From positions 1 to 7,415 of IMG/VR virus record IMGVR_UViG_2617270973_000012: a stretch of 7,415 nt of DNA. One strand, given 5' to 3'. Under the pieces are notes generated by a model that made no database searches, was not told where the DNA came from, and saw only the letters and a list, made by a program, of their open reading frames with translations. Origin of the DNA: a virus. Its lineage: Duplodnaviria; Heunggongvirae; Uroviricota; Caudoviricetes. The position numbers and the translations under genes were made by a program. Positions 1-7,415 of the stretch are shown in pieces. Position 1 is the stretch's first letter; each line of letters starts with the position of its first letter.

Positions 1-708
1 ATGTGGGTCAATAAGTATATTGACGATTGCACTGATGAGGATTTAAACGATCGTGACTTTATTGCATCAGTTGTTGACCGGGCTATTTTTCATTTCGCGA
101 TTAATAGTATATGTAATCTTGGGGATAATAAAGATGCAATGCCCATTGAACAATGTACTTTTGATGTAGAAACTAAGAATGACCTTCCCTCCACGGTTCA
201 GCTATTTTATGAGGAATCTAAGGATAATGAACCTTTAGCGAATATACATTTTCAAGCAATAGGTTCTGGTTTTTTAACGTTTGTTAATGCCTGCCAGGAA
301 CATGATGACAACAGCTTAAAATTATTTGCTTCGCTGTTAATTTCACTTTCATATTCTAGTGCCTACGCAGATTTATCAGAAACAGTGTATATTAATGAAA
401 ATAATGAGAGCTACCTGAAAGCTCAGTTTGAAAAATTATCTCAACGTGATATGAAGAAGTACCTGGGAGAGATGAAGCGTCTGGCTGATGGGGGAGAAAT
501 GAATTTTGATGGCTATCTGGATAAGATGTCACATCTGGTGAATGAAGGAACGCTCGATCCTGATATTTTAAGCAAAATGCGAGATGCTGCACCACAATTA
601 ATTAGCTTCGCGAAGTCGTTTGACCCAACCTCAAAGGAAGAGATTAAAATACTTACAGACACTTCTAAATTAATTTATGATTTGTTCGGGGTTAAATCGG
701 AGAAATAA
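1..708 (+). CDS. Hypothetical protein, 235 aa, AT-rich; possibly the 3' part of a longer gene cut by the window edge
   Basis: Open frame from ATG at position 1 to TAA at 706-708, followed by a hairpin plus T-run terminator. No motif I recognise. Composition is clearly AT-rich compared with the prophage core. Because the ORF begins exactly at the window edge, the true start may lie upstream. Confidence 0.55.
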   Translation: MWVNKYIDDCTDEDLNDRDFIASVVDRAIFHFAINSICNLGDNKDAMPIEQCTFDVETKNDLPSTVQLFYEESKDNEPLANIHFQAIGSGFLTFVNACQEHDDNSLKLFASLLISLSYSSAYADLSETVYINENNESYLKAQFEKLSQRDMKKYLGEMKRLADGGEMNFDGYLDKMSHLVNEGTLDPDILSKMRDAAPQLISFAKSFDPTSKEEIKILTDTSKLIYDLFGVKSEK

Positions 709-778: not shown

Positions 779-1294
779 TCTATCAATGCTATTAGCAGGG
801 AGATATATCACCAGAGTTTAATGTGTGATTTTTTATTTATCGTCGAACCTGGATTGTTTATCATTGGCCTTAACAAAGTTAACGGCTAATAAGATTATTT
901 CCATCACTTCGTGAGAGCTTCATGCCTTGAGAGGATCTCAATTTTCTTTTGCAATGAGACAGGCGCTTCCTGTTGTTATGGTATAGTACCCCGCTATTGA
1001 GCCTCCTGAACAGTGATGCTGAATAACATAACCCCATGATATATCGATAAAATAATCTCTACATTTGAAAATGCACGGTAATTCTGAAATGCAAAAAATC
1101 AACCAAACCAGCGCAATGCCTGAAAAAACTGACGTTCACTGGAGTGGTCGGTTTAGCGTTGCACCAATGCTCGATAGGATGTATCGTTTTTGAAAAACAA
1201 TTGGTTATGTGTTTTGTGGGAGCCTATTGGGAACCTATCAAAAGATTTTTTGTCATAGCAGTGTGAGATGCAAAACACTGTGATGGTCGCTTTG

Positions 1295-1322
1295 TTGACA
1301 TCGCAACTTCTGCAGGTATAAT
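1295..1322 (+). promoter_or_regulatory. Near-consensus sigma70 promoter for the DUF4065/membrane-protein operon
   Basis: TTGACA at 1295-1300, a 16-nt spacer, then TATAAT at 1317-1322; both hexamers match consensus exactly. Predicted transcription start near 1329-1330, giving a roughly 150-nt leader before the ATG at 1480. Confidence 0.7.
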
Positions 1323-1479: not shown

Positions 1480-1953
1480 ATGTACAGCCCGGTACAAATA
1501 GCCAATAAATTCATAACGTTGGGAAACCAACATCATAATCCTCTGACCCACATGCAACTGCAGAAGCTTACTTATATTGCACATGGTTACTATTTAGCAT
1601 TAACAGGTAAGCCTTTGCTCAATGAATGTGTCTCCGCGTGGAAGTACGGTCCAGTTATTCCTGGAATGTACGATGCTTTCAAAGATTATGGGAATAAACC
1701 TGTTACGAATGTAGCAGTAGCTCCTTTTGGTGGCATTGTTACTATGGATCCACAAGCAGAGAGCATTATAGGGGCTGTTTATAAATTTTACGGCTCGAAA
1801 AATGGAATTGAGTTATCAACTCTAACTCATATGCCTGGTACGCCTTGGTCACAAGCTTATAATGGTATTGGCTCGTCAATCATCTCAAATGATGCGATCA
1901 AGGCTTATTATCATGATTTATTGAATAACCGACAGCAATGTCAGGGCCTCTGA
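1480..1953 (+). CDS. Panacea-domain (DUF4065 / COG3600 GepA / SocA-like) protein, putative PanA-type antitoxin, 157 aa
   Basis: The segment LQKLTYIAHGYYLALTGKPLLNECVSAWKYGPVIPGMYDAF resembles the conserved core of DUF4065/Panacea proteins as I recall it. AGGAGG at 1468-1473 lies 6 nt upstream of ATG 1480. The ORF-track start at 1465 is an in-frame ATG sitting inside this ribosome-binding site, so I moved the start to 1480. Stop is TGA at 1951-1953. Confidence 0.6.
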   Translation: MYSPVQIANKFITLGNQHHNPLTHMQLQKLTYIAHGYYLALTGKPLLNECVSAWKYGPVIPGMYDAFKDYGNKPVTNVAVAPFGGIVTMDPQAESIIGAVYKFYGSKNGIELSTLTHMPGTPWSQAYNGIGSSIISNDAIKAYYHDLLNNRQQCQGL

Positions 1954-1975: not shown

Positions 1976-2524
1976 ATGTCTCACAATTCAGATATCTATA
2001 AACTTATCGGAGCGGCCGCAGGTGTTGAAAATGGTCGCTCTGAAGCATCCTTAAACTCTACTGACAGTCAAGAACAGATTTTTAAATCTGCATTTGAGCC
2101 GTCTAATCATGAGAGCGACGATGATTCTTCTTCAGAAAATAAAGCTATTCTGGAGGCAGAAGAGTTTGGTTCTAATACTGGTGCATTGCATGAGTTTATG
2201 CAGCAGAACAGAATGGACAGTCTTCAAGCTCAGCTTGATATGCTCAAATCACAAGTACGGGATAAGATAGCTGACGCAACTGGTAAAGAAATAGACAATG
2301 AGCTTCGGACAAAAATGGCCTCATTCACGGTTTGGTTTATGTCGTGTTGGTGCTTATTCGTTGTCGCAATGTTTACATCGTTTCTTATTGCACATGAAGG
2401 AAAGCCTCCAGTTGAAGCGATCGTTGCATTACTAGGTACAAGTACAATTAGTATTGTTGGTTTGGTTGGTTTCGTTGTTAGTGGATTGTTCAAATCAAGA
2501 AAAGATAGTGATAAAGAAAAATAA
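1976..2524 (+). CDS. Membrane protein, 182 aa: acidic N-terminal region, coiled-coil-like middle, two C-terminal TM helices; candidate toxin/effector partner of the upstream gene
   Basis: Starts 22 nt after the upstream stop, with a weak GGGA ribosome-binding site. The N-terminus is rich in D/E/S (ESDDDSSSENKAILEAEEF). Two hydrophobic stretches, FTVWFMSCWCLFVVAMFTSFLIA and AIVALLGTSTISIVGLVGFVVSGLF, are followed by a basic tail KSRKDSDKEK. No family recognised. Confidence 0.6.
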   Translation: MSHNSDIYKLIGAAAGVENGRSEASLNSTDSQEQIFKSAFEPSNHESDDDSSSENKAILEAEEFGSNTGALHEFMQQNRMDSLQAQLDMLKSQVRDKIADATGKEIDNELRTKMASFTVWFMSCWCLFVVAMFTSFLIAHEGKPPVEAIVALLGTSTISIVGLVGFVVSGLFKSRKDSDKEK

Positions 2525-2544
2525 CCCGTACATATACGGGTTAT
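2521..2544. terminator. Bidirectional rho-independent terminator between convergent transcription units
   Basis: Perfect 10-bp inverted repeat ATAACCCGTA (2521-2530) / TACGGGTTAT (2535-2544) with loop CATA. An A-run lies upstream (a U-tract for minus-strand transcripts) and a T-rich stretch downstream. It overlaps the TAA stop of the plus-strand gene and sits 14 nt from the stop of the minus-strand PrtN-like gene. Confidence 0.75.
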
Positions 2545-2557
2545 CCATAGTTTTAGT

Positions 2558-2830
2558 TTAGTTATATTTTTGTTTTTCCGTTCTGACTTTTTCCCACTCA
2601 GCTCGCCCTTCTTCCCGTCTTTTGTCAATATATTCCGCAAGATCCTGAATGTTGATGCAGCGTTTTGCTTTTTGTGATGTACCGATGCGATATGTAGGTA
2701 CAGGCAACTTACAAGCGTTTGCTTTTGCTTCTGCTGTGGCTGGACTCATACCAAAGTATTTTTGACTAACTGCTGAGAGTTCAATGTTTGGGGTATTGAA
2801 TTCAGCCATCAGTAAAAACAAGGTGTTCAT
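2558..2830 (-). CDS. PrtN-family / excisionase-like small DNA-binding protein, 90 aa
   Basis: Small basic protein at the distal end of the leftward operon. Sequence MNTLFLLMAEFNTPNIELSAVSQKYFGMSPATAEAKANACKLPVPTYRIG resembles the pyocin-activator PrtN family, often annotated as phage excisionase. I moved the start from the ORF-track GTG at 2857 to ATG at 2828-2830, which has GGAG 6 nt upstream. Confidence 0.55.
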   Translation of the reverse strand: MNTLFLLMAEFNTPNIELSAVSQKYFGMSPATAEAKANACKLPVPTYRIGTSQKAKRCINIQDLAEYIDKRREEGRAEWEKVRTEKQKYN

Positions 2831-2866
2831 AATTTTCTCCATCAAAACCGGCTGCACCCGGGAAAA

Positions 2867-3439
2867 TCATAATTCTGTGCTGGTGGCAGGAATTAGTTTC
2901 TGCCAGATAGCGGAAACATATTTTGCCTGATGACGGGCATCAGCCAGGGCGTTGTGCCGTTCTCCATCGAAAGGCATGTCCATTTTTGGGTCGAATCCGA
3001 TGGAACGCCCAAGCGTAACGATCGTGCGTACATCGTGGTCATTCCAGTACGCCCACGGGCAGATTTGTCCTGCTCGCTCGTAAGCTCCACGTAAAATTAC
3101 GTTGTCGAAGGTGGCCCCGTTACCCCAGACTTTTAAATATTTTGTATTGTCTGCATGCTGATTAATGAAATGGCTCAGTTCAGAGAGTGCATCGCTGATC
3201 GACAAAGTATCATCAATACAGATTGCAGCTCGTGCTTCAGAGCTCTGTTTCAACCACCACAGGATGGTATCGCCGTCAGGTGTAGCTCCTTGCCCCATAG
3301 CACTTTCCAGGCTAACAACCGTATAGAATTCTTGTCCGATGTCTCCGGTTTCTGGAGTGAAGAACACCGCGCCAATGGAAACGATCGGTGCATCCTTATT
3401 TTTCCCCATCGTCTCAAGGTCGATCATTAAGTTATTCAT
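2867..3439 (-). CDS. DnaQ-like DEDDh 3'-5' exonuclease, phage-type, 190 aa
   Basis: Exo I motif IDLETMG, Exo II WGNGATFDNVIL and Exo III HNALADA (H-x4-D) are all present. GGAGG ribosome-binding site. The start ATG overlaps the stop of the upstream gene (TAATG). Confidence 0.7.
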   Translation of the reverse strand: MNNLMIDLETMGKNKDAPIVSIGAVFFTPETGDIGQEFYTVVSLESAMGQGATPDGDTILWWLKQSSEARAAICIDDTLSISDALSELSHFINQHADNTKYLKVWGNGATFDNVILRGAYERAGQICPWAYWNDHDVRTIVTLGRSIGFDPKMDMPFDGERHNALADARHQAKYVSAIWQKLIPATSTEL

Positions 3440-4263
3440 TACTTCACCTCCTGCGGCGGTTCCGGTAGCGGCATCCAGTGGGTTACTTTCAATGCCGGTT
3501 CTTCCCCATCGTCAGTAACTGCCCACCATTTGTTTCTCGAACAATCGTAATATCCTTCGAAGGTATCGCACTCAGTCCAGCCGTAAGACTTACCCCAACA
3601 CCAAACATATTGTTTATCGTTCGGCATTCGCTCACTACAGCTTATCCAACTATCCGGAGTTACCGGATAGTTGCGCATTGCGACCTTTAATGCCTCATAG
3701 AAGCAACCTTTCAGATTGTTGAACTGACGCCCATTAAGAGGACCGTGTTCAGTAAGCATGTTGCGTAATTTCCATGCCGCGTCGTTTACTTCGTTGGATG
3801 ACAGGGGAGGCAACTTGTAAGTTTGGCTTACAGGTTCGGCACCATGAAGCATGGCGCCGCTCCGCTCTATGCCATCCAGCGCGATTCGCAGTGCCTGAAT
3901 TGTGGTAGAGCTATCGTTTGGGGCTATTCCATATCGCTCGAATACAGCTAAATGGTTGCGCATAATCTCAGGCGTAAGCTCTTTGTAAGCATAAGCAAGA
4001 GGCTCTGATGCATTATCCGGCACAACCGACGCAGGCGCGGCAGCATAAACAGGAATAACGTCCGCTTGCTCTTTATTGCTTTCATCCGTTAAAGCCCAGA
4101 ATAATTTCCCGGCCGGATGTTTGAAAATATAAGCAACTGGATCTGCTTCCAGCGATGCCAGTGCAATTTCATAAGCACGGCGCTCAATATTGTCTCGAAC
4201 GTCCAAGCTGCCTATGCGCTCTTTGATTTCTTTAATCAGTTCTTTGTCGGTAAAATTGGTCAT
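3439..4263 (-). CDS. Phage protein with C-terminal DUF551-like domain, 274 aa
   Basis: The C-terminus is Trp/Cys-rich and ends VTHWMPLPEPP, typical of DUF551 phage proteins as I recall them. AAGGAG ribosome-binding site 6 nt upstream of ATG 4261-4263. N-terminal half not recognised. Confidence 0.5.
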   Translation of the reverse strand: MTNFTDKELIKEIKERIGSLDVRDNIERRAYEIALASLEADPVAYIFKHPAGKLFWALTDESNKEQADVIPVYAAAPASVVPDNASEPLAYAYKELTPEIMRNHLAVFERYGIAPNDSSTTIQALRIALDGIERSGAMLHGAEPVSQTYKLPPLSSNEVNDAAWKLRNMLTEHGPLNGRQFNNLKGCFYEALKVAMRNYPVTPDSWISCSERMPNDKQYVWCWGKSYGWTECDTFEGYYDCSRNKWWAVTDDGEEPALKVTHWMPLPEPPQEVK

Positions 4264-4273
4264 GTGTTACTCC

Positions 4274-4537
4274 TTAACCCGCAGTGCTTTCAACTGACGA
4301 GGGGAACAAAATCTTTTCATCAAATCCGGCATTCATATCATGGACAGCAACACACCAATCCATTGACGAACGATTATCAAGAGCCTCCATGATTTCATCC
4401 ATGCGGCGTAGGTCATACAGGTAAATATTTTTATCGCCAATGGTGTAAAAACCAATTTTTTTCGGTGATGGACAGCGATCAATAACGTCCTGTAATTCGT
4501 TCAACCATGCCTGTTCTTTTTTTGTCAAAGTTGCCAT
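4274..4537 (-). CDS. Hypothetical phage early protein, 87 aa
   Basis: ATG at 4535-4537 is preceded by AAGGA. The ORF-track extension to 4627 would overlap the upstream gene and has no ribosome-binding site. Stop TAA at 4274-4276. Confidence 0.5.
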   Translation of the reverse strand: MATLTKKEQAWLNELQDVIDRCPSPKKIGFYTIGDKNIYLYDLRRMDEIMEALDNRSSMDWCVAVHDMNAGFDEKILFPSSVESTAG

Positions 4538-4538
4538 A

Positions 4539-4757
4539 TCAGTTTTCCTTATACGGATTAATTTTATTGTGCAGTGTGTTGAACGACGCCCATACCACGT
4601 CGTTATACAATTCAATAACTGGCTCAATTATTTTCCCGATTGCCCAGACAAAAATTAGCGGGGATATCGGTATCATCAACACGATAAACAGAATGAGAAA
4701 CAGGAATTCTGTCGTTCTACTCTTTCGCGGATATTCTTTTCTGAATAATGTCGGCAC
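4539..4757 (-). CDS. Small single-TM membrane protein, 72 aa, GTG start
   Basis: AAGGAG lies 7 nt upstream of GTG 4755-4757. Hydrophobic helix FLFLILFIVLMIPISPLIFVWAIG. Stop-start spacing with neighbouring genes is 1-2 nt. Confidence 0.45.
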   Translation of the reverse strand: MPTLFRKEYPRKSRTTEFLFLILFIVLMIPISPLIFVWAIGKIIEPVIELYNDVVWASFNTLHNKINPYKEN

Positions 4758-4758
4758 A

Positions 4759-5091
4759 TCACTCTCCTTTGATGCGAATGCCAGCGACGCGTAGTGCGTG
4801 TTCTAAGTCAATCAGGCAAAGCCAACTGCCATTTTCTTTAGGTATCATGACATGTCGCTTATCAGCATTTATTGGGTGCCCATATCGAAGGTCGTAGCGA
4901 GTCGGTAATTGAACTTCCCTCGCTTCCAGTTCTGTAATGCGTTTGTTTTTAGCTTCTAGTTCATCCAGCAGCGCCAGCACAACCTGCGGTGTGACTTTCA
5001 TACGAAATGCCAGCAATTTTTGTGGTGTGGCTACTATTTTTATTGCTTCTGCCGCCTCACGCAGTGCCTGATAGTTAATTTTGGTTGTCAT
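4759..5091 (-). CDS. Hypothetical phage early protein, 110 aa, coiled-coil segment
   Basis: ATG 5089-5091 overlaps the upstream stop (ATGA). GAGGTGG ribosome-binding site. Heptad-like segment LLDELEAKNKRITELEAREVQL. Family not securely recognised. Confidence 0.5.
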   Translation of the reverse strand: MTTKINYQALREAAEAIKIVATPQKLLAFRMKVTPQVVLALLDELEAKNKRITELEAREVQLPTRYDLRYGHPINADKRHVMIPKENGSWLCLIDLEHALRVAGIRIKGE

Positions 5092-5966
5092 GCCACCACC
5101 TCTTCGAATTTCAACTCCAATTGATCACCCCAGATTTCACATGACTCTGAACACGAGCCGGTATCGAATCGCCTGGCTTGCACCATCGCCTGATACAAAT
5201 TTCTGTAGTCGCTGTCGGCATACATTCTGGCAATCCCGTCAAGACTCAGATGACCACGGTACATAACGTCTTTATCTGTCTTTCGGTGACCATCCCGGAC
5301 GTGTTTACCTGTAACCAGCTCATTAAAAACTCTCATCAGACCAGGTTCGTCTTTACATGCAAGCCCCAGCTTTTGCGTGGACTTTTTGATGCAGAAAACA
5401 CAGTTCCCGAGGTGCTCCGGGATTTGCAAATCAAAAGGTTGTTTATGCCACCACCGGATAACATCCGACTTATCAAAATCAGATAGCTCGGCAAGATACC
5501 GGACGCCTGATTTCGGTTTCAGCCTACGAGGTTCGTCTGCACGAATACCCAGCCATGTGATGTAATTCCCTCGTCCGAAATGGTCATCGCAGTATTTTGT
5601 GAAGGGGGTGAGTTTTAATCTGTCAGTGCAGAACGCGCCGCCGATGTATGGCGTGCCATATTTTTTTACCATGTCCATAAACGGTTTAAGCACCGGCATT
5701 CGCGTCTGAATATCCTTTGGTTCCCATTCCGTATAACCATTTGGCTGCCCAAGCTCTGGATTTATATCGACCTGCAACACAGTTAGCGGTATGCCCCAGA
5801 ACTTCACAACCTCCCGAATAAAGCGGTATGTCAGCGGATGTTCGCAACCGGTATCCATAAAGATGTAGCAGACGTTATTACCAGCCTTTCTTTGTTCTTC
5901 CATCAGGTGAACAAGATATGCAGATGTTCTCCCGCCAGAAAAACTAACTACATGAGTTATGCACAT
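5088..5966 (-). CDS. PAPS-reductase-family (PF01507-like) PP-loop protein, 292 aa
   Basis: PP-loop-like SFSGGRTS near the N-terminus. The segment IFMDTGCEHPLTYRFIREV parallels the CysH-family motif (TDTG...ETYRFI). Common in lambdoid prophage early regions. Confidence 0.7.
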   Translation of the reverse strand: MCITHVVSFSGGRTSAYLVHLMEEQRKAGNNVCYIFMDTGCEHPLTYRFIREVVKFWGIPLTVLQVDINPELGQPNGYTEWEPKDIQTRMPVLKPFMDMVKKYGTPYIGGAFCTDRLKLTPFTKYCDDHFGRGNYITWLGIRADEPRRLKPKSGVRYLAELSDFDKSDVIRWWHKQPFDLQIPEHLGNCVFCIKKSTQKLGLACKDEPGLMRVFNELVTGKHVRDGHRKTDKDVMYRGHLSLDGIARMYADSDYRNLYQAMVQARRFDTGSCSESCEIWGDQLELKFEEVVA

Positions 5967-6493
5967 TTGCGTAATTCCGATAACTCGTTGAAGCGTGCCA
6001 TAAACATCCCGTAGGCATGGCCCGGTGCCAGTGGAATCACGTTGAACATCTCTGTTGCCGGGATGCCTTCTAGTACAGGCCAGAAAGAGCCATCATCAAG
6101 CCCGAGATCGCGGCGTTCGGTTGCCAGCATGATGAGATCGGCATATTTCACGGGTGTACTCATAACCGGGGGTAACCCGTATTTCTCACGGATTACGGCG
6201 TCTATTTTTTCTTCCATCCGTTTATAGTCAGGAAGAAGGCGTTTCAGTGGAGCGGGAATATCCTGGCAATACGCTTCTGTTGCATCATGCATTAACGCTT
6301 CAAAAGCAAATTCCTGCGGCACCAGCTGGCTGCAAAGCACCGCATGCTGGGCGACACTGTAGAAGTGTGAAAGATGTCCTGCAAAGCGACAGATATTTGA
6401 AAGGGAAACCGCGATATCGTTAATAACGATGTCGTCTTTATTTATCTTGTCATAATAAAAATGCTTCCCGGAAAAAGTTTTAATAAATGACAT
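5957..6493 (-). CDS. yfdR: HD-domain phosphohydrolase (YfbR/YfdR-like 5'-deoxynucleotidase family), 178 aa
   Basis: His...His-Asp signature (SVAQHAV ... LMHDATEAY). Length and position next to a DUF2303 gene match CPS-53 yfdR as I recall it. I moved the start from the ORF-track GTG at 6520 to ATG 6491-6493, which has GGAG 6 nt upstream. Confidence 0.6.
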   Translation of the reverse strand: MSFIKTFSGKHFYYDKINKDDIVINDIAVSLSNICRFAGHLSHFYSVAQHAVLCSQLVPQEFAFEALMHDATEAYCQDIPAPLKRLLPDYKRMEEKIDAVIREKYGLPPVMSTPVKYADLIMLATERRDLGLDDGSFWPVLEGIPATEMFNVIPLAPGHAYGMFMARFNELSELRKCA

Positions 6494-6586
6494 TTTGTTC
6501 TCCACGTATATGCGCTGCACCGCGCTGAATTCTGGTAAAAGGAAGCCCTCACCATCCGGCGATTATTGAGTAAATTATGTTTCCAT

Positions 6587-6608
6587 AAATGCCCCCGCAG
6601 GGGCATTT
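6587..6608. other. Perfect 9-bp-stem hairpin in the intergenic region between the DUF2303 and HD genes
   Basis: AAATGCCCC (6587-6595), loop CGCA, GGGGCATTT (6600-6608). No clean U-tract on either strand, so a terminator role is uncertain. Confidence 0.4.
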
Positions 6609-6620
6609 GCAGTAATGAAA

Positions 6621-7415
6621 TCAGGCGGTGAAAGTACCAATAAAGGTTTCTACTTTGCTGTCTTTAAATTTCTCAACAAGCAGATCACGAAATTCGTTAG
6701 CCATTTCTTCCTGCACCGCTTCCAGCTGAATAATGCGCAGAACCAGTACAGGACGATCGCCAGTGATAATGCTGAGGCGTAATTTAAACGGACGTTCTTT
6801 CAGGCCTTCAAACGGAACGCATTTAAATTCAAATGCCACTGGCATAATGTCTTTGGTCTTCGCTTCGACAGACTCCATCAGAGAGCGTTTGCCGCTGAAG
6901 TCATTGTCTTCAAAATCAGCGGTCTGGTTCGCTTCAATTGTGATTTTACGGACCGCCGCAGCCGCTTTGGTTGCCTGAATGGCGTCACCATTAGCATCAA
7001 AGCCCACAAGGTAGTCGGCCCAGTCTTCAATCCATTCTGCCAGTGACTTCTGGGAGTTACGCTCGCCATTAACAGACAACAGAGCAGAAAACGGTGCTGT
7101 CTTTTTCAGTTTGAGGGTGGCGGTGTTATCTGCGTGACCTGGTTCATCAATAGTCCCCAGGTTAAGCACACTGACGGCTCGCATATTATCGGCATCGATA
7201 AAGCAGCGGGTGCCTTCATCTGCAAGATCTTTAGAATAACGGGTAAAGTCATCGATGCTGGCAGTGGAAAGCGCACCACGGAAACGGAAGCGATTTAAAT
7301 TAAATTTTTCCAGATCATGAATGCGGAAATTCTCAGGCAATGCCACAGCATCGGCACCAATCTTACTAATAATTTCATTAACACCCTGAGCAGAAATAAG
7401 GGCATGGATTTGATT
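6621..7415 (-). CDS. yfdQ: DUF2303-family protein (YfdQ-like), 5' end beyond the window
   Basis: I translated the minus-strand frame beyond the ORF-track GTG at 7346 and it stays open to the window edge (…[30 protein letters not shown]…). The resulting length of at least 264 aa is consistent with the roughly 274-aa YfdQ family. Stop at 6621. Confidence 0.55.

Follow-up and report, generated by a model that had tools for sequence, protein, structure and literature searches.

The open reading frame at 1976..2524 (+) very probably is panT, which encodes the membrane-acting toxin of a type II toxin-antitoxin cassette made up of two genes, panA and panT. The gene lies in a window of 7,415 nt, i.e. 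the whole stretch of the Caudoviricetes record IMGVR_UViG_2617270973_000012 that was analyzed. The window pair belongs to the PanT(Esc. col.)/T3 cluster as published, and the system was already known, named and tested in 2022 (Kurata et al., 2022). Its recovery here therefore carries little weight as a discovery, and the value left lies in the questions of its trigger, its role, the contact surface of PanA and the function of an invariant helix. New here are the extent of the family, which reaches 376 clusters, the nearly invariant second membrane helix, the hypervariable yet acidic N-terminus, and the linkage to a Panacea gene in 7/7 loci.

The panT frame starts with ATG, with a Shine-Dalgarno-like AGGGA 6-7 nt upstream, and encodes a 182 aa protein (allele WP_000019187.1) 22 bp 3′ of panA. 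The exact protein is present on 453 contigs, and panT was found in 79 of 5,426 complete E. coli genomes, one copy in each and every copy chromosomal. Taken with 67 homologues from a single-sequence search and 376 clusters from a profile search, this distribution of related sequences indicates that panT is a real gene and no chance reading frame. Positions 1400-2600 are identical at the DNA level (100%) to several complete E. coli chromosomes, e.g. that of CFSAN018748, in which RefSeq annotates panA as WP_000287252.1 (Panacea domain-containing protein) and panT as WP_000019187.1 (hypothetical protein). A 100% identical stretch is also carried by Escherichia phage PhiR47_1 (PV340566.1), whose depositors labeled the two products PanA antitoxin and PanT toxin. 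The initial annotation, made from the letters of this DNA, had treated the protein as unrecognised; this does not hold, given the annotation in PV340566.1 and the published T3 cluster, though it is true that Pfam, NCBIfam and PADLOC offer no model for it. The PhiR47.1 paper (PMC13190303) makes no mention of PanA or Panacea. As PhiR47_1 has been used in laboratory plating assays with the identical cassette aboard, it provides a ready test bed.

The published reference for this pair is that of E. coli STEC O31, which is listed in Table 1 of Kurata et al., 2022 (PNAS, PMC8832971) with the toxin WP_000019185.1, the antitoxin WP_000287252.1 and the mode of action 'Membrane', and in the supplement with the order A|T, a spacing of 22 and the toxin cluster T3. 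The PanA of the window is WP_000287252.1, the exact accession validated in that study, and exactly 22 bases separate the last base of panA (1953) from the first of panT (1976). When seven other E. coli PanT loci were translated, 1-13 of the 182 residues differed from the window protein (at least 92.9% identity), and the same PanA accession was found paired with five PanT accessions besides that of the window. The annotations at 12 E. coli matches comprised WP_000019186.1, WP_000019187.1, WP_021563277.1, WP_032209643.1, WP_000089360.1, WP_053878051.1 and WP_059274466.1. WP_000019185.1 was not among the annotations inspected at these 12 matches, and the supplements of PMC8832971 give this accession without a sequence; the accessions ending in 185, 186 and 187 are adjacent in RefSeq numbering. 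From the shared PanA accession, the gene order, the 22 bp spacer and the 1-13/182 differences among E. coli loci, we infer that the window PanT is an allele of the tested WP_000019185.1, the near-identity of the two resting on these features and not on an alignment of the sequences. The STEC O31 toxin would belong to the same 182 aa protein family, and at most a handful of substitutions is expected between the two alleles, outside the second helix. This helix shows no amino acid change across the E. coli alleles compared, and the changes cluster in the N-terminal region and in the first membrane helix (W120C, C124W, V130A, A131V/G and T134V). PanA differs by 7-12 nucleotides among the E. coli loci, and the protein is unchanged in four of the six loci compared. 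The PanT substitutions recur both with and without four PanA substitutions, and PanA-PanT co-variation is thus uninformative.

The upstream gene, panA (1480..1953, +), encodes a stand-alone Panacea-domain antitoxin of 157 aa with a pI of 8.5. Its product matches Pfam SocA_Panacea (DUF4065, PF13274) with an E-value of 6.2e-18 and 66 bits against a cut-off of 25.7; its match in PADLOC-DB 2.0 is only at chance level (E 0.02). A GAGGAGG sequence at 1467-1473 favors the ATG at 1480 over the in-frame ATG at 1465, and the RefSeq start agrees. The longest panA frame, from the ATG at 1465, would give 162 aa, and one database member of 162 aa uses this longer form. The Panacea gene lies 22 bp 5′ of the toxin frame on the same strand, which is the adjacency reported for PanATs. 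The initial annotation had supposed that the product of panT might be the toxic partner of the upstream protein, and this is borne out in that the upstream gene is the very Panacea antitoxin, WP_000287252.1, that was tested with E. coli PanT.

The toxic activity has been characterized with the sibling allele. Upon induction of E. coli PanT (WP_000019185.1), translation, transcription and replication stopped together, the incorporation of methionine, uridine and thymidine being inhibited without distinction as with HokB and CCCP, and within 30 minutes the cells showed strong depolarization of the inner membrane by DiSC3(5) and raised SYTOX Green uptake; the authors concluded that E. coli PanT forms large pores (Kurata et al., 2022; PMC8832971). 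Co-expression of the cognate PanA restored growth, and ClpXP and Lon were reported to be unnecessary for neutralization by PanA (PMC8832971). Pull-down complexes were shown in the same study for five other PanAT pairs, the E. coli pair not being among them (PMC8832971). The suggestion of a membrane-depolarizing toxin thus agrees with the behavior of a sibling allele whose PanA is identical, which depolarizes the membrane and admits SYTOX Green (Kurata et al., 2022), and the dye-based induction experiments proposed at that time have in effect already been done on this allele.

We examined the layout of PanT by composition, hydropathy and structure prediction. Residues 1-80 (1976..2215, +) constitute an acidic, Ser-rich, disordered N-terminal region, in which residues 21-80 have a net charge of -9 (13 D/E and 4 K/R) and contain 11 Ser. 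Residues 81-115 (2216..2320, +), DSLQAQLDMLKSQVRDKIADATGKEIDNELRTKMA, make up an amphipathic helix whose hydrophobic residues are spaced by 3-4 (L83, L87, L90, V94, I98, A101, I106, L110 and M114) and whose C-terminal end is the conserved motif G-x-x-I-D-N-x-L-R-x-x-M-A. The first membrane helix spans residues 116-140 (2321..2395, +), with a Kyte-Doolittle 19-residue mean of up to 2.15, and the second spans residues 148-172 (2417..2491, +), with a peak of 2.22 and the nearly invariant core ALLGTSTISIVGLVGFVVSGLF. The loop between the two hydrophobic stretches, EGKPPVE, is short and net negative, and the tail, KSRKDSDKEK, is of mixed charge with a net charge of +2. An AlphaFold2 model built on a 32-sequence alignment was of moderate confidence (mean pLDDT 62, pTM 0.28); residues 19-53 had pLDDT <50, and a single unbroken helix ran from residue 68 to 139, i.e. 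into the first membrane helix, followed by a break at 140-145 and a second helix at 146-178. The layout from sequence and model agrees with the description of E. coli PanT by Kurata et al., 2022. The acidic Ser-rich disordered N-terminus and the two hydrophobic helices joined by a short loop, as initially described, are all recovered by composition, Kyte-Doolittle peaks and AlphaFold2. For the coiled coil that had been proposed, what the data support is an amphipathic helix (3-4 spacing and model helix 68-139), an oligomeric coiled coil going beyond them; the tail is basic in net charge and not purely so.

Positively charged flanks of membrane helices stay cytoplasmic according to the positive-inside rule. 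In PanT, R111 and K113 precede the first helix, and K173, R175 and K176 follow the second. With positive flanks on both helices and a short loop of negative net charge, PanT is predicted to insert as a helical hairpin with both termini in the cytoplasm and the loop EGKPPVE in the periplasm.

We asked how far the family extends. The single-sequence search with PanT returned the 67 homologues mostly from Enterobacterales, with relatives in Klebsiella, Enterobacter, Salmonella, Serratia, Pantoea, Providencia and Dickeya. An exhaustive profile search gave the 376 PanT-family clusters (50% identity) at E ≤0.001, 42 of which were found at E ≤1e-10, and many of these relatives are shorter (110-160 aa), matching only the core of helix plus hairpin. 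A scan of the genomes of species representatives with the closer alignment located three PanT loci, one each in Erwinia, Pectobacterium and Buttiauxella. Conservation is uneven along the protein. In 31 homologues with overall identities of 31-94%, residues 148-173 have a mean identity of 91% and a minimum of 81%, the motif at residues 103-115 a mean of 68%, the first membrane helix 41%, and residues 21-80 only 24%. In the alignment of 32 homologues, G103, I106, D107, N108, L110, R111 and A115 are invariant, as are T118, F121, M122, W125, C126, F128 and V129 in the first helix. The signature of the second helix in the family is GLVGF..(S/K)GLF, and G162, L163, V164, G170 and F172 are retained even in relatives only 18-36% identical. 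The net charge before G103 is negative in all 32 close homologues and in 27 of 30 distant ones. As this charge persists at a sequence identity of 24%, the comparison points to selection on the acidity of the N-terminus and not on its sequence. This conservation map provides targets for mutagenesis, namely the invariant second helix, the pre-membrane motif and the acidic hypervariable N-terminus.

The genomic neighborhood was looked up for seven PanT homologues, from ~49% down to ~19-30% identity, and in all seven a SocA_Panacea gene lies directly upstream on the same strand. The pairing is thus kept across divergent homologues, which is the reciprocity that Kurata et al. looked for. Three of the seven pairs reside in P2-like prophages, in the variable region bounded by gpA, the replication gene, and the portal gene. 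One occupies a lambdoid site of Providencia, with the Q antiterminator on one side and the holin on the other, and has an N6 methylase and a specificity subunit as neighbors, one is next to an IS1595 transposase, and one is on a phage-like contig. The remaining pair, a distant one, appears to lie outside any phage, on a chromosome, where it is flanked by a sigma-70 family gene and a DnaJ-like gene. In this chromosomal pair, PanT is of 141 aa and its start overlaps the panA stop (1708-2648 in locus L024 and 747-1687 in locus L025).

The conserved parts of PanT suggest how the toxin may be held and how it may act. The Gly/Ser/Thr-rich second helix probably serves as the interface for oligomerization or for the pore. 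PanA would most likely bind PanT at the pre-membrane helix (G-x-x-IDN-x-LR-x-x-MA), possibly together with the acidic N-terminus, and the mildly basic PanA (pI 8.5) would keep PanT inactive at this candidate contact site. In Bartonella PanT_D11, the predicted contacts of Panacea are with the unstructured N-terminus and the pre-membrane helix, and the PanA mutants Y56A and H120E support this prediction (Ernits et al., 2023; PMC10440598). PanT_D11, i.e. PanT(Bar. api.) from Bartonella choladocola in cluster T12, resembles the window PanT in having a stand-alone Panacea partner, and for the window pair it is by analogy with PanT_D11 that the acidic N-terminus may be viewed as the contact surface of PanA, as had been suggested from the sequence. 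Our search of the literature returned, for the T3 family, no published experiment on the conserved helix or on the surface that PanA contacts.

The T3 and T12 clusters were called 'potentially homologous' by Kurata et al., 2022 (PMC8832971). We compared a T12 member, D11S_2262 of Aggregatibacter phage S1249, with the T3-derived profile, and hhalign gave a probability of 2% for this one single sequence; BLASTP of D11S_2262 against the window PanT gave E 0.23. With one T12 sequence tested, no homology was detected and the likeness of the two clusters is one of layout and action, which is at odds with the published remark. The T12-type PanA-PanT genes of phage S1249 (36265-37036) overlap by 14 nt, and the toxin is of 114 aa.

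Other toxins share the mode of action of PanT. The type I toxin HokB, which served as the comparison control in PMC8832971, likewise causes loss of membrane potential and a general shutdown upon expression. RmrT_D5 of the RosmerTA system in Gordonia phage Kita (PMC10440598) is phage-borne, has a C-terminal membrane region and brings about rapid depolarization and permeabilization, as does PanT, but its partner is from a different antitoxin family. Class II phage holins have two membrane helices and a charged C-terminus and make large holes in the inner membrane like PanT, which differs from them in having a long acidic N-terminal region, in matching no holin family and in lying in no lysis cassette. 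Hok-type toxins have ~50 residues, contain a single membrane helix and are under antisense RNA control. In contrast, PanT has 182 residues, two helices, a long cytoplasmic region and a protein antitoxin. PanT acts like HokB-type and RmrT-type toxins and like holins, and belongs to none of them.

Database searches assigned PanT to no characterized family. In Pfam and NCBIfam, there was no match above the curated cut-offs, so that homology to a housekeeping membrane protein family, which the initial annotation had named as evidence against its reading, was not seen at these cut-offs. The sub-threshold candidates DUF2207_C (16.1 bits against 33), 7tm_6 (13.3 against 25.8) and exosortase Y (13.2 against 160) were rejected as noise from hydrophobic segments. 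None of the PanT homologues has a precomputed Pfam domain, and the defence-system models of PADLOC-DB 2.0 include none for PanT. In PHROGs, PanT matched only families of unknown function, its product corresponding to phrog_13343 (E 1.8e-113). Foldseek of the PanT model (pLDDT 62) against the PDB gave a single match at E 7.3, a profile search of PDB sequences with the PanT family gave nothing below E 0.16, and the Pfam holin families gave no match at E up to 0.1.

A lambdoid prophage is integrated in dusA, and panAT are its leftmost genes, as shown by a 105 bp 5′ fragment of dusA at 1071..1175 (+), which marks the left junction (attL) and is annotated in RefSeq as an incomplete tRNA-dihydrouridine synthase, and by the start of the phage record PV340566.1, position 1 of which maps to position 1173 of the window. 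No integrase gene was found at this left prophage end within the window. A candidate panAT promoter is located at 1295..1322 (+), ~155 nt 5′ of panA, and consists of TTGACA, 16 nt and TATAAT, matching the sigma-70 consensus at 12/12 positions. This putative promoter recurs, with the same relative placement, in each of the eight loci long enough to cover it, including alleles of ~95% identity. An Rfam scan of the whole window, including the ~150 nt leader before panA, gave no match. Downstream, panT converges on a PrtN-family, excisionase-like gene (2558..2830, -; RefSeq start), whose product matches PyocinActivator PF11112 (E 3.9e-23) and the excisionase family phrog_1300 (E 6e-40). Between the two genes is a terminator-like hairpin at 2519..2546, which overlaps the panT stop codon and on either strand has a stem of 10-12 pairs with a T-rich tail after it.

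In the lysogen, panAT would be transcribed from the consensus promoter at 1295-1322, and PanT would be freed once PanA is inactivated or depleted. The most likely role of panAT is abortive infection or exclusion of competitor phages, a reading to which we assign nearly even chances of being correct. We favor this defence role because of the accessory-gene locations of the homologous cassettes, the promoter, which does not depend on early or late phage transcription, and the hypothesis that Panacea is a sensor. A sensor role for Panacea is favored by Ernits et al., 2023 (PMC10440598). In our search of the literature, a phage-defence test of a panAT cassette was not found. The gpA-portal region of P2-like phages and the Q-holin accessory site of lambdoid phages are hotspots of anti-phage systems, as Rousset et al. 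reportedly described in 2022. A broader proposal is that a much larger family of two-helix pore formers, all strictly linked to PanA, has the T3-type PanT as its founding member and acts as a prophage abortive-infection system, in which Panacea senses the incoming phage and releases PanT and the fast-evolving acidic region serves as the docking or trigger-specificity element. We put this forward tentatively, and as a whole it is somewhat less probable than the defence role itself.

The main rival to the defence role is prophage addiction, according to which panAT is mainly a post-segregational killing module that stabilizes the dusA prophage and has no anti-phage role: upon loss of the prophage, the short-lived antitoxin would be lost and leftover PanT would kill the cell. 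The position of the pair directly inside attL and adjoining the excisionase-like gene speaks for this explanation, as does the established toxin-antitoxin behavior (PMC8832971), and roles akin to addiction are considered by Kurata et al. for those PanATs that lie close to transposons and prophages (PMC8832971). The sensor role of Panacea favored by Ernits et al., 2023 speaks against it. So does the finding of homologous cassettes in accessory-gene sites of prophages, which are reportedly enriched in defence genes. That ClpXP and Lon are unnecessary for neutralization by PanA might be held against addiction too, but it says little on the lability of the antitoxin either way. As none of these counterpoints is decisive, we regard addiction as the main role as somewhat unlikely and as an explanation to be taken seriously.

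Two further explanations concern PanT as a membrane protein of the phage. A prophage gene that lies beside an att site and is active in the lysogen often codes for an exclusion protein. Given this location and a large cytoplasmic region, PanT could be a superinfection-exclusion protein that blocks the entry of phage DNA, with its toxicity being an artefact of overexpression and PanA a chaperone or insertion regulator. The rapid shutdown of three syntheses, the depolarization and dye uptake within 30 minutes and the rescue by cognate PanA make this very unlikely, and the pairing of the toxin with Panacea in 7/7 loci fits a toxin-antitoxin pair. PanT could also be a phage lysis protein, i.e. a holin or lysis-timing factor, with PanA as an antiholin-like regulator. 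Its two membrane helices, charged C-terminal tail and pore formation do resemble class II holins, but the gene is at the attL end beside the excisionase-like and early-region genes, away from endolysin and spanin genes, the Pfam holin families give no match, and a homologous locus has a separate Phage_holin_2_1 and lysozyme 3′ of the cassette. The consensus promoter of the pair also suggests expression in the lysogen. These observations render a lysis role the least credible of the explanations considered, so that the holin-like character initially ascribed to PanT is apt as an analogy of action and not as a statement of kind, the gene lying outside any lysis cassette.

The flanks of the cassette differ in composition and gene content. 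The G+C content rises from 36-41% over positions 1-2750, where a DUF2713 gene, the junction and panAT are located, to 46-49% over the early region of the prophage at 2750-7415, a step that would fit the acquisition of panAT as a separate accessory cassette. The DUF2713 family gene at 1-708 (+) is a host gene (E 4e-166) that begins 5′ of the window; in RefSeq it is frameshifted in CFSAN018748 and intact in WP8-S18-ESBL-07. The prophage early region encodes an Rv2179c-like 3′-5′ exonuclease (2867-3439, -; E 2e-75), a PAPS-reductase/PP-loop-like protein of 292 aa (5088-5966, -) and an HD-domain YfbR-like putative 5′-deoxynucleotidase (5957-6520, -). The latter two genes overlap by 10 nt, and their products may act together on nucleotides.
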